The position numbers and the translations under genes were made by a program. Positions 1-2,577 of a stretch of 24,203 bases of DNA are shown one piece after another. The stretch is from an uncultured Clostridia bacterium. Its GTDB lineage: Bacteria; Bacillota; Clostridia; Oscillospirales; CAG-272. The stretch lies in the NCBI GenBank assembly GCA_946641795.1, contig CAMPBZ010000001.1, forward strand, positions 1 to 24,203, in the 5' to 3' direction. Below the pieces are notes generated by a model. It saw only the letters and a list, made by a program, of their open reading frames with translations, was not told where the DNA came from and did not search any database. Position 1 is the first letter of the stretch; every line of letters starts with the position of its first letter.

Positions 1-49
1 CCCGTGATACGAAAGTATCGTACCGGTTCGATCCCGGTCACCGGCACCA
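1..49 (+). tRNA. tRNA-Leu, 3' part only (anticodon outside the window)
   Basis: Long variable arm GATAC-GAAA-GTATC, T-arm ACCGG-TTCGATC-CCGGT, acceptor 3' strand CACCGGC, discriminator A73 and encoded CCA. A GCCGGTG-type acceptor with a long arm and A73 fits Leu. Confidence 0.85.
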
Positions 50-192
50 CCGGGGGCTGAAAAGAGGGCCAGGCGAAGGGGACGGCGTGCGAGATGCGGT
101 CGAACGCAAGGCAGCAGGCAGGCGCCGAGGCGAGAAGCAGAGGGCGCGAGGCGGCTGGCGCGAGAAGCCTTTTGACCGGCAAAACAAAATAT

Positions 193-262
<70 letters not shown>

Positions 263-269
<7 letters not shown>

Positions 270-427
270 AAAATAAGGCAGGCACCCAAACGGGTGCCTG
301 CCTTATTTTTGCCTGTGAAAGCGATTTTGACCGTACGATCAACGGGTTATGAGCCCGAAGGGCGAATAACCCGGAGGGGAGCGCGTCGAGCGCTGTCGGC
401 GACAGATACAGCGAAGGCGCGCGAGTG
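263..427 (+). repeat. tRNA-linked long repeat, copy 1
   Basis: Matches 2125-2289 with one mismatch and 723-887 with several substitutions. Confidence 0.95.
269..310. terminator. Intrinsic terminator after tRNA-Met, probably bidirectional
   Basis: Perfect 19-bp inverted repeat AAAAATAAGGCAGGCACCC-aaac-GGGTGCCTGCCTTATTTTT; identical copies at 729-770 and 2131-2172. Confidence 0.9.
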
Positions 428-491
428 GCCGCGGTCAAAACTGCGGAGCGAGTGCTACGAGCGACAAGCAGTTTTGGGCACCGCAACAGGA

Positions 492-522
492 TCGTGTGGT
501 TCAAGTCCCACCTCCGCAACCA
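492..522 (+). repeat. Duplicate of the tRNA-Met 3' end (31 nt, att-like)
   Basis: TCGTGTGGTTCAAGTCCCACCTCCGCAACCA is identical to 239-269. Confidence 0.95.
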
Positions 523-563
523 AACGCACAAAGGACACCTAATCGGGTGTCCTTTGTGCGTTT
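522..563. terminator. Intrinsic terminator after the second tRNA 3' end
   Basis: 18-bp inverted repeat AAACGCACAAAGGACACC / GGTGTCCTTTGTGCGTTT, a different sequence from the other terminators. Confidence 0.85.
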
Positions 564-700
564 GTCTGTGGGGATGTTGCCGCGAAGCACACGCAATCGC
601 CAACGCCGGGCAATGGCATTTAATAAAGCGGAAGAAGCGATTGCCGGACGGAGCAAAGGCGGTCGGGAGCCCGCCGTCACGGCTTGCCGTGTTGCGAAGT

Positions 701-916
701 TGTGGTTACAAGTCCCACCTCCGCAACCAAAAATAAGGCAGGCACCCAAACGGGTGCCTGCCTTATTTTTGCCTGTGAAAGCGATTTTGACCGTACGGTC
801 AACGGGTTATGAGCCCGAAGGGCGAATAAGTCGGAGGGGAGCGCGCCGAGCGCTGCCGGTGACAGATACAGCAATGGCGCGCGAGCGCAACTATTCGGTT
901 TCGCGTAGCGAAACGT
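701..916 (+). repeat. tRNA-linked long repeat, copy 2 (tRNA 3' end with an A inserted in the T-loop, terminator, spacer)
   Basis: TGTGGTT(A)CAAGTCCCACCTCCGCAACCA followed by the same terminator and spacer as copy 1, offset 460 bp. Positions 888-916 match 2290-2318. Confidence 0.93.
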
Positions 917-996
917 CGGCGTTCAGCCGGCGAGAATGTTGCGTACGTTGGCGCAGGTCGAGATTTTTGCGAGCGACTGCGAGCATAAAAAATCTC

Positions 997-1022
997 GGGC
1001 ACCGCAACAGGATCGTGTGGTT
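997..1022 (+). repeat. Truncated tRNA-Met 3' fragment, left junction of the toxin cassette
   Basis: GGGCACCGCAACAGGATCGTGTGGTT is the same as 476-501 and stops abruptly in the T-loop. Confidence 0.9.
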
Positions 1023-1347
1023 ATTCTATGACGGTCACCGACGAATCCTCATTGACAATTTCAATTTGAATATCCTTTGCGAACATATCATCAGGATAGT
1101 GCTTAAACCTTTGCAAAATCTCAATCATTTTATCTGCGGCATCGTCAAATTTATCTCTAATGATTTCAAGTCCTATAATTGTAATGCGCATGGGGGTCCC
1201 ATACAGATCGGTCAAGCAATCCCAAAAAGCGGACCAGTTACAGCCATAATAATCCGGAAATTCAAGAGATTCTCGGATGACAAAATGCATTTCTAAATAA
1301 TATTTCACATTGTGGAAATCAATGGTATATTCTTTTCTTTTTTCCAT
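1021..1347 (-). CDS. Barstar-family RNase inhibitor (immunity protein), 108 aa
   Basis: FPDYYGCNWSAFWDCLTD aligns with barstar LPEYYGENLDALWDCLTG. SD GAGGAGG overlaps the upstream stop codon; ATG at 1347. Confidence 0.93.
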   Translation of the reverse strand: MEKRKEYTIDFHNVKYYLEMHFVIRESLEFPDYYGCNWSAFWDCLTDLYGTPMRITIIGLEIIRDKFDDAADKMIEILQRFKHYPDDMFAKDIQIEIVNEDSSVTVIE

Positions 1348-1357
1348 GTGGCCCTCC

Positions 1358-1930
1358 TCACTTTGTAATTTCATAAAATGTTTGGTAATGGTCGTATGTA
1401 ACAAAAATCAAACCGTCACTTGAATAAAGGATCCTTTGCCGATTTCGCTTTCCACCTGTGTAATTGATGTCGGCTTCATACCATATTCGCCCCGGCATAA
1501 ATGGGAGTTTCTGATCATCGTTTGTATAAATATCTCCGCCGATCATTTTGCCGGGCAAAACCTTATCTAATTTTTTGTGATTCGGTTTCCAGCCTTCAGA
1601 GTAGGCCTCTTTTTTGCTTACATAATAATTCGGTAACCGATTTAAATAATAGAGCTGGGCGTCTGCGCCGTTATATCCCATGTTGGTTGCACTTCCCGCA
1701 AGTTTTGTTCTCATCGGCACATAAATGCACTTACAATTCTCATGTGCGTTGACCTGGTCATTGTTTTCCAAAACAGAGATGTCGACGATCGTTCCGTGAT
1801 GGTCAACACAATATTTGCAGGTAGTGATGGTGAGTTGCGACTTCCAGTTTGCCCATTTGGAACTGTTACCCGCTAAATTCCTATCTTGTAAAAGATCGTT
1901 GATAAAAGTATCAACAAAATTTTCTTCCAT
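1358..1930 (-). CDS. Barnase-family ribonuclease toxin with an N-terminal MuF-like (phage head morphogenesis) Cys/His motif, 190 aa
   Basis: C-terminus IGGDIYTN..KLP..GRIWYEADINYTGGKRNRQRILYSSDGLIFVTYDHYQTF matches barnase, including catalytic E and H. N-terminus has TCKYC..HG..HENCKC. SD AAAGGAG; ATG at 1930. Confidence 0.92.
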   Translation of the reverse strand: MEENFVDTFINDLLQDRNLAGNSSKWANWKSQLTITTCKYCVDHHGTIVDISVLENNDQVNAHENCKCIYVPMRTKLAGSATNMGYNGADAQLYYLNRLPNYYVSKKEAYSEGWKPNHKKLDKVLPGKMIGGDIYTNDDQKLPFMPGRIWYEADINYTGGKRNRQRILYSSDGLIFVTYDHYQTFYEITK

Positions 1931-1943
1931 GTTTTCTCCTTTC

Positions 1944-1971
1944 ATTATATCATTTTTTTATTGCGTGTCAA
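1944..1971 (-). promoter_or_regulatory. Sigma-A promoter of the toxin-immunity cassette
   Basis: TTGACA (1971-1966), 16-nt spacer, TGaTATAAT (-10 at 1949-1944). Confidence 0.7.
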
Positions 1972-2124: not shown

Positions 2125-2318
2125 GCAACCAAAAATAAGGCAGGCACCCAAACGGGTGCCTGCCTTATTTTTGCCTGTGAAAGCGATTTTGACCGTACGA
2201 TCAACGGGTTATGAGCCCGAAGGGCGAATAACCCGGAGGGGAGCGCGTCGAGCGCTGTCGGCGACAGATACAGCGACGGCGCGCGAGTGCAACTATTCGG
2301 TTTCGCGTAGCGAAACGT
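2125..2318 (+). repeat. tRNA-linked long repeat, copy 3 (right junction of the cassette)
   Basis: Starts at GCAACCA, followed by the terminator and spacer. The 5' part matches copy 1 and the 3' part matches copy 2. Confidence 0.95.
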
Positions 2319-2353: not shown

Positions 2354-2427
2354 TAAAAAAATCACCCCCAAGAACGTATCTCGGGGGATATAGCCGGGCG
2401 GCGTCAGATCATGCGCCCGACCTCGCT
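2354..2427 (-). ncRNA. Candidate small RNA B (about 75 nt)
   Basis: Own promoter TTGACA-17-TGgTATTAT (2460-2432), a GUCGGGCG/CGCCCGGC hairpin, then a CCCCCGAGA/UCUUGGGGG hairpin with a U-tract. No real ORF. Confidence 0.55.
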
Positions 2428-2470
2428 GTTTATAATACCACAAAAAAACGGATTTGTCAATAGAAAAACA

Positions 2471-2532
2471 AAAAAAGTGACCGGGCGATTGGCAACCCGG
2501 TCATCACGGTTGCAAAAGCAGAGCCGTGTCCA
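2471..2532 (-). ncRNA. Candidate small RNA A (about 60 nt)
   Basis: Consensus promoter TTGACA-17-TGcTATAAT (2567-2539), a CACGG/CCGUG hairpin, then terminator UGACCGGG/CCCGGUCA with U7. Confidence 0.6.
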
Positions 2533-2577
2533 ATAATTATTATAGCATTGACGCCGCTATTTGTCAAGGCCTGATTT

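Follow-up and report, generated by a model that had tools for sequence, protein, structure and literature searches.

An initiator tRNA-Met gene is followed, in the window analyzed here (the whole stretch of DNA, 24,203 nt), by three copies of a long repeat (263-456, 723-916 and 2125-2318), each of which carries on its plus strand the 16-mer CGGGTTATGAGCCCGA (343-358, 803-818 and 2205-2220), and the same 16-mer lies on the minus strand at 219-234, inside the tRNA-fMet gene. The question raised by this locus is why an inverted copy of the anticodon arm should stand beside the gene that it mirrors, and whether it acts on the tRNA in trans or serves the repeat in which it lies. The exact reverse complementarity at all three repeats, pointed out earlier in a sequence-only reading, was confirmed by a search allowing up to 2 mismatches, which returned four matches against a chance expectation of 0.01, with none of 100 shuffles giving as many. 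Copies 1 and 3 of the repeat are identical at 164 of 165 positions, and copy 2 agrees with either of them at 156 of 165. No repeat copy in the window was called as a tRNA on either strand by ARAGORN or the Rfam tRNA model, 192-268 alone being called. In the initiator tRNA, the Rfam alignment places a bulged U in the 5' strand of the T stem (window 241-262), where relatives have a bulged A. The coordinates of all features are given in Table 1.

Table 1. Features of the tRNA-fMet locus and its cassettes (window coordinates).
Feature	Position	Strand	Remarks
Class II tRNA 3' end, clipped by window edge	1-50	+	complete tRNA-Leu(taa) at the equivalent place in L067 and L135
Initiator tRNA-Met gene	192-269	+	CAU anticodon, C1xA72 mismatch; ARAGORN 192-268, Rfam tRNA 193-266 (59.8 bits)
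tRNA-fMet anticodon arm	219-235	+	part of gene 192-269
Terminator T1	268-311		20-bp hairpin, A tract before, T tract after; inverted repeat I8
Decayed inverted copy of tRNA variable loop and 5' half of T arm	323-342	-	12/20 vs tRNA 235-254; now near-palindrome TTGACCGTACGATCAA; better kept in G012
Hairpin H, copy 1	343-373	+	31 nt: 8 bp, tandem G.A pairs (2x2 G.A/A.G), 4 bp, GAA loop
16-mer, exact inverted copy of tRNA-fMet positions 27-42	343-358	-	5' strand and part of the loop of H
Direct partial tRNA copy (positions 29-47), U33C34 replaced by GA	360-377	+	3' strand of H and variable-loop GGAGG; direct repeat D2
Module E, copy 1	378-491	+	structured, GC-rich, at variable-loop position; family alignments with compensatory pairs
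Direct repeat of tRNA T arm, acceptor 3' strand and CCA	492-522	+	exact copy of 239-269; D3
Terminator hairpin T2	523-565		inverted repeat I7; differs from T1
Degenerate tRNA 3' repeat closing the second unit kind (566-731)	699-731	+	D3; stretch shared with G012 (L013)
Cassette copy 2	728-1022	+	T1 728-771, palindrome 787-802, 16-mer 803-818, hairpin 803-833 (right arm mutated)
Cassette copy 2, right part	838-1022	+	long E variant 838-1012, truncated tRNA repeat (T-arm piece) 1013-1022
Barstar inhibitor	1021-1404	-	Pfam PF01337, 8.1e-16
Barnase-type ribonuclease	1358-1945	-	Pfam PF00545, 8.8e-11
Cassette copy 3	2125-2290	+	tRNA tail GCAACCA 2125-2131, T1 2130-2173, palindrome 2189-2204, 16-mer 2205-2220
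Cassette copy 3, right part	to 2290	+	hairpin 2205-2235, then truncated E

Regarding the origin of the repeat, the reverse complement of a stem-loop retains its stems, so the orientation of an arm copy can be read only from the seven loop bases and the flanks. Of the 20 nt that extend the 16-mer on the minus strand, 12 agree with the variable loop and T arm of the tRNA (p 0.0009 by a binomial test and 0.004 by shuffling), and the complete inverted similarity covers 48 nt at 73% identity (inverted repeat I4); in a related species (G012, locus L013) the inverted match CATAACCCGGAGGTCGTGTG is perfect over 20 of 20 positions and spans loop, stem, variable loop and T stem. The flanks of the 16-mer thus match an inverted tRNA, which confirms the inverted orientation, and the likeness to a decayed variable loop and T arm that had been noted on the minus strand holds in the window and is complete in the relative. 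To the right, ATAACCCGGAGG (366-377) equals tRNA positions 36-47 in the sense orientation. Together, the inverted and direct matches to tRNA-fMet bear out the tRNA origin proposed for the repeat and support the view that its left part is an inverted copy.

The hairpin that had been suspected between the 16-mer and 366-377 is hairpin H, for which a fold energy of -20.7 kcal/mol was obtained as RNA (z -6.0) and of -11.5 as DNA. H consists of two opposed copies of the anticodon arm of the initiator tRNA, the left one inverted and the right one direct, and the replacement of U33C34 by GA in the right copy has zipped the former anticodon loop into the helix, so that tandem G.A pairs now lie below a GAA loop. 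Tandem pairs of this kind are common in RNA, and the C-GAA-G loop and the pyrimidine-GA-purine tandem mismatch are unusually stable features of DNA hairpins. A second type of unit has a small CGCC-GAA-GGCG hairpin between module E and ATAACCC; the window hairpin looks like this arrangement without E and the apex of the D stem, and the GA-for-UC change may be a junction remnant of it. In copy 2, as had been seen from the letters, the 16-mer is intact while the partner arm has become ATAAGTCGGAGG, and there the plus strand folds at -14.1 and the minus strand at -7.6 kcal/mol.

Across the 51 distinct contexts collected for H, the two pairs at the base of the stem are G-T in 41 and in 17 contexts, which on the other strand would be A.C mismatches; wobbles are thus tolerated on the plus strand only, which shows that the hairpin folds on that strand, and the plus-strand hairpin is the more stable in all 51 contexts (means of -16.3 vs -10.8 kcal/mol). 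These folds bear on the two trans-acting roles that the sequence-only reading had suggested for the 16-mer. In the case of an antisense to the initiator tRNA made by read-through, the 16-mer is held in a hairpin of -20.7 kcal/mol that follows a 20-bp bidirectional terminator, and a minus-strand CAU decoy is hardly recognizable in the minimum-energy fold of that strand, which zips CUCAUAA into a helix, burying it in 47 contexts and leaving it as an open 7-nt loop in 4. The VapC-like anticodon nucleases against which such a decoy was imagined have no counterpart here, in that a PIN/VapC gene was not found in the genome, which is 71% complete.

The distribution of H was examined by scanning one genome per species (genome_contigs) with the 24-nt hairpin core, of which 59 exact copies were recovered in about 50 species of Oscillospirales, all of them MAGs; the carriers are labelled Acutalibacteraceae, Oscillospiraceae, Faecousia, Flemingiibacterium or unclassified Clostridia, and their source is the gut of ruminants or humans. 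When 401 genomes sampled evenly across the order were scanned for the 30-mer with up to 3 mismatches, 13 carried it, representing 9 of 178 genera and 7 of 30 families; with the genome of the window (G000) counted, the matches have 0 (9), 1 (3), 2 (5) or 3 (2) mismatches, their number dropping toward the cut-off. The hairpin was absent from 2.9 million viral contigs searched. Regarding its placement, 64 hairpins had enough upstream sequence to be judged: for 36 of them a tRNA-Met(CAU) is found less than 160 nt upstream, nine lie further along an array, and for the remaining 19 the locus shows no complete tRNA-Met on the upstream side. Several of the 19 follow partial tRNA copies or the ends of other inserts.

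In the 51 contexts, which come from MAGs and were mostly ascertained through the hairpin itself, so that the conservation is partly a product of ascertainment, conservation is 90% or higher at positions -3 to +23 and at +26, while +24 and +25 are only C or T, compared with about 45% conservation for the 30 nt upstream, where a T-rich trace remains at -20/-19. The GAA loop and the GA replacing the UC of the tRNA are fixed in all 51. The comparison of the 16-mer with its flanks that the sequence-only reading had called for therefore divides: the 16-mer stands out from its left flank, and on the right the hairpin arm is conserved just as well, so that the conserved unit is the hairpin and no free antisense stretch is seen. 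Invariance that extends to the loop and both mismatches is typically seen where a protein or partner nucleic acid recognizes the site, and the perfect complementarity of 15-16 nt would also persist if pairing with the tRNA mattered. In G012 a module interrupts the hairpin, which is broken by it and hence not indispensable.

H is one element of a cassette of about 250 nt, composed of a bidirectional terminator, a decayed inverted 3' part of the tRNA, the hairpin, a module, and a direct repeat of T arm, acceptor and CCA; hairpin units lacking a module ('empty' units) were not encountered among the loci examined. Overall, the composite amounts to a partial tRNA-fMet copy that carries a module in place of its variable loop and folds back at a truncated 5' end. 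T1, bidirectional as far as its sequence goes, belongs to the cassette and not to the tRNA locus as its native terminator. In G009 and G011, the terminator that follows the second tRNA 3' copy is the sole terminator of the unit-less G010 and G001, respectively, and this identity defines the insert as T1 through the module plus one tRNA repeat. As in att duplications, the stretch 239-269 recurs as 492-522 and bounds the insert, the tRNA is intact, and the insert is present or absent among relatives with the native flank kept. The tRNA repeat of the cassette matches the local tRNA in eight of nine species compared; in the exception (L063) 11 of its 36 positions depart from the local tRNA, and it resembles the tRNA of another species, which points to horizontal transfer. 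The position at which the inverted copy turns around is 28/29 in the type found in the window, 20-22 in G012-like units and 42/43 in G005 and G011. A simple tandem inversion duplication formed in place was ruled out, as T1 differs from the native terminator.

The units occur in mixed arrays that bracket cargo. In the window, the barnase/barstar pair is array cargo between the truncated T-arm piece of copy 2 and the tRNA tail of copy 3, and has a perfect promoter-like site (TTGACA-16-TATAAT, 1971-1944, minus strand); barnase-type ribonucleases are not known to act as anticodon nucleases. Elsewhere (L091:467-3028), two hairpin units enclose an alpha-L-rhamnosidase gene, and the second unit begins exactly at TTATGAG, without the preceding three G. 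Upstream at L074, L079 and L091 there are partial tRNA-fMet copies that start exactly at the anticodon loop (CTCATAA) with unrelated DNA before them, and these mark other elements integrating by anticodon-loop crossover in tRNA-fMet. No integrase or recombinase was detected in the 16 window ORFs scanned, nor at L059, L079 and L091, and the genome has a single PF00589 match, on contig C149. On the minus strand of window 2365-2567 two promoter-like sites, TTGACA-17-TATAAT and TTGACA-17-TATTAT, each precede a terminator-like hairpin by about 40-60 nt, a layout that may represent a pair of very short transcription units. The region downstream of the fMet cassette in G009 (L016) gave sub-threshold matches to Gut-1 RNA at 980-1061 on the plus strand (30.9 bits) and at 307-382 on the minus strand (26.2 bits; gathering threshold 50).

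The explanation preferred here, tentatively and at somewhat less than even confidence, is that the 16-mer is one strand of a cis hairpin heading a tRNA-anchored, horizontally exchanged cassette, and that it acts in folded form for the upkeep or movement of that cassette. The cassette lodges between tRNA-fMet and its native terminator, behaves as a block that is gained and lost within the bounds of the direct repeat of T arm, acceptor and CCA, accumulates in arrays and brackets cargo. Its transfer from one species to another would occur through recombination with the tRNA gene, which is nearly invariant. The hairpin would act in cis as a folded single strand needed for maintenance or movement of the cassette, and presumably has no trans effect on either the initiator tRNA or anticodon nucleases. 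A role at the DNA level is favored over an RNA product because a terminator stands in front of the unit, no promoter is predicted, the cassette shows presence and absence and a patchy distribution across lineages, it forms cargo arrays, and the hairpin has features of stable DNA hairpins. In the promoter scan no promoter-like site was predicted to drive copy 1 on either strand. The idea that the inverted T loop (TTGAAC) and the inverted anticodon loop (TATGAG) together form the -35 and -10 elements of a promoter was dropped, as they stand about 15 nt apart, at a distance that varies, and the scan picked up no site there.

The modules are a reason to consider RNA as well. Two main types (E and E2) follow the hairpin at an identical point, after GGAGG or GGAGGT, and a third (E3) is present in G005 and G011. 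Module E is about 110 nt long, with two hairpin domains and about 50 distinct variants, and an alignment of 14 units has compensatory changes in 19 of 43 predicted pairs, wobble counts within E giving no strand bias; E2 is more uniform than E. No family for the hairpin, E or E2 exists in Rfam 15, which returned only tRNA and chance-level hairpin matches. Locations of E include window 378-491 and 838-1012, contigs C16, C32, C39 and C126 of the same genome, and loci L012 and L031-L038. Copies lie head to tail on contig C16 and in G026. In several species, partial tRNA-Ser copies situated between a promoter and the real tRNA-Ser harbor E in their D loop, sometimes in tandem; in G012, L064, L067, L099 and L135 it is at the anticodon-loop position of the second kind of fMet unit, and E2 is at the T-loop position in L135 and in units after the elongator tRNA-Met (contig C33). 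These placements combined indicate that modules occupy all four loop positions of tRNA-like sequences.

E is also intergenic in 16 viral contig stretches (L039-L054, IMG/VR), where the subset inspected by eye is mostly oriented like the flanking genes. In one of them (L039) it is bracketed by a 17-nt direct repeat. GenBank phages gave no match to E, and matches of a 16-nt E2 pattern in viral contigs looked like chance for so short a pattern and were left out. Derivation of E from IS200/IS605 as a miniature element was rejected, since 12 Y1 transposase loci in 11 genomes of the genus are without E ends, and so was the possibility that the two ends of E are parted by a gene, since its 5' and 3' motifs were never seen one without the other.

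Similar tRNA units in this genome are associated with Met, Ala, Leu, Tyr and Ser. The units downstream of the Ala (C11), Met (C33), Leu (C134) and Tyr (C79) genes all contain the 3' end of their tRNA in direct orientation, and in most of them a tRNA arm is also copied in inverted orientation. On C33 (6980-7700) the elongator tRNA-Met is followed by four units in which two module types alternate, each unit being closed by an inverted partial T-arm copy and ending in a copy of the tRNA 3' end. Two identical tandem units follow the tRNA-Ala on C11 (290-760) and a single unit follows the tRNA-Leu on C134 (2735-3000), while at the tRNA-Tyr on C79 (5000-5700) the terminator hairpin extends into an inverted T arm and acceptor, and this inverted T-arm piece is found again some 175 nt further downstream. 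After several tRNA genes, the last terminator is succeeded by heptamer-like repeats in runs (CTTCACT and similar), as on C11 and C33 and at L030 and L038.

Since E elsewhere stands in tRNA-Ser leaders and phage operons, where it is transcribed, which favors an RNA role for at least the E part, an RNA product is a serious rival, if on balance an unlikely one. The cassette would then be a structured-RNA gene in which H takes the place of the anticodon arm and the module that of a giant variable arm, both joined to the T arm and acceptor 3' strand in a tRNA-like scaffold, truncated at its 5' end, that stabilizes or presents E or E2, the RNA arising by read-through of T1 or as the 3' trailer of the tRNA precursor. 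The plus-strand-specific structure with compensatory pairs would be accounted for, as would the better folding of the whole unit on the plus strand (-87.6, z -2.7) than on the minus strand (-79.2, z -1.4), but the unit always stands behind a strong terminator, and the scan predicts no promoter-like site for it. The scaffold itself lacks the acceptor 5' strand and the D arm and is not called by the Rfam tRNA model or ARAGORN, its T loop is replaced in some lineages, and a long-range stem between left flank and T arm, strong in the window, was rejected as residual over 30 units (mean z about -1, no strand bias); in favor remain the position of E between promoter and tRNA-Ser in several species and, in the phage contigs viewed by eye, mostly between genes of the same orientation.

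Distinctly less probable is a functionless relic, produced by fold-back or template switching at the quasi-palindromic anticodon arm or left as integration debris and passively carried, whose apparent conservation would come from recent spread and from both arms copying an invariant gene. The locus is indeed an integration hot spot, with partial tRNA-fMet copies preceding units in L074, L079 and L091, the inverted flank decays freely, and the turn-around point varies among unit types. Gene conversion from the tRNA would, however, erase the GA, and this GA-for-UC change and the GAA loop are fixed in 51 contexts while the adjoining module and terminator have diverged to the extent of compensatory change; a pure relic is unlikely when two non-tRNA bases and the loop stay fixed as their neighbors diverge.

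Very improbable, finally, is a trans-acting 16-mer, whether as plus-strand antisense or sensor of the initiator tRNA made by read-through or as a minus-strand CAU-arm mimic that decoys anticodon nucleases, because the perfect complementarity of 15-16 nt to an invariant tRNA arm, kept in about 50 species, is matched by an equally conserved hairpin partner whose G-T wobbles fit the plus strand only, because T1 could end a minus-strand RNA just past the mimic but both minus-strand promoter-like sites to the right of copy 3 (2567-2539 and 2460-2432) are each followed by a terminator of their own before it and none is predicted near copy 1, and because the 71%-complete genome yielded no PIN-domain gene and the neighboring RNase is barnase-type; neither antisense nor decoy is supported by anything beyond the complementarity itself.

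The cis-acting cassette favored above can be extended to a bolder proposal, considered improbable as a whole, of a hitherto undescribed class of small, recombinase-less tRNA-gene elements, whose tRNA-derived arms fold back on their target, whose modules sit at four loop positions, and which spread via the tRNA gene and assemble cargo islands; as a sub-case, the invariant hairpin may sense or titrate the initiator tRNA. The initiator tRNA gene is essential and nearly invariant, and H is as conserved as the tRNA while being non-coding and patchily distributed over seven families of gut Clostridia, so that something must read it, be it a protein, a recombination machine or the tRNA itself. The cassettes suggest how islands at tRNA genes could arise without a resident integrase, and they expose at least two unannotated families of structured elements (E and E2), both with a preference for tRNA-like loops and one shared with phages. 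Should the cassettes turn out to be mobile, they would represent a novel kind of tRNA-anchored element; should they be RNAs, they would show a tRNA scaffold put to natural use.

A literature search found no description of such units, and they can be compared with several known systems. Like a T-box leader, the locus has an AUG-containing stretch complementary to the anticodon loop of a specific tRNA, but there is no Rfam T-box match (E up to 1), no T-box sequence and no downstream gene, and the AUG is paired in a helix. At the tyrT locus of Escherichia coli, downstream repeats contain the 3'-terminal bases of tRNA-Tyr, so that here too tandem units follow a tRNA gene and each ends in a tRNA 3' copy; these repeats are not known to have an inverted arm, a conserved hairpin or an inserted structured module. 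Quasi-palindrome template switching, tandem inversion duplications and hairpin-loop inversions likewise yield sense-inverted-sense copies joined at hairpin-forming sequences, whereas the T1 of the cassette is unlike the native terminator and the cassette is inherited and transferred as a unit, not formed in place in each genome.

Folded single-strand recombination sites, such as the attP of the CTX phage and the attC of integrons, share with the cassette the inverted repeats around a variable structured center and the arrays at a fixed site, and the plus-strand bias and fixed G.A pairs of H fit a strand-specific hairpin with conserved mismatches. The cassette differs from them in that no XerCD- or IntI-type partner was found, its arms are tRNA-derived, and its hairpin does not occur in the 2.9 million viral contigs. 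Duplications of tRNA 3' ends are also found at the att sites of phages, ICEs and islands, and with the cis-mobilizable elements of streptococci. They mark integrated elements, for example the tycheposon islands (bioRxiv 10.1101/2020.12.28.424599). The cassette resembles such elements in the direct repeat of the tRNA 3' end that bounds the insert, the regeneration of an intact tRNA, the cargo arrays, and the presence and absence among relatives; it differs in its size of about 250 nt with no integrase nearby, in its inverted tRNA piece and conserved hairpin, and in a tRNA homology that is interrupted by a structured module at a loop position of the tRNA.
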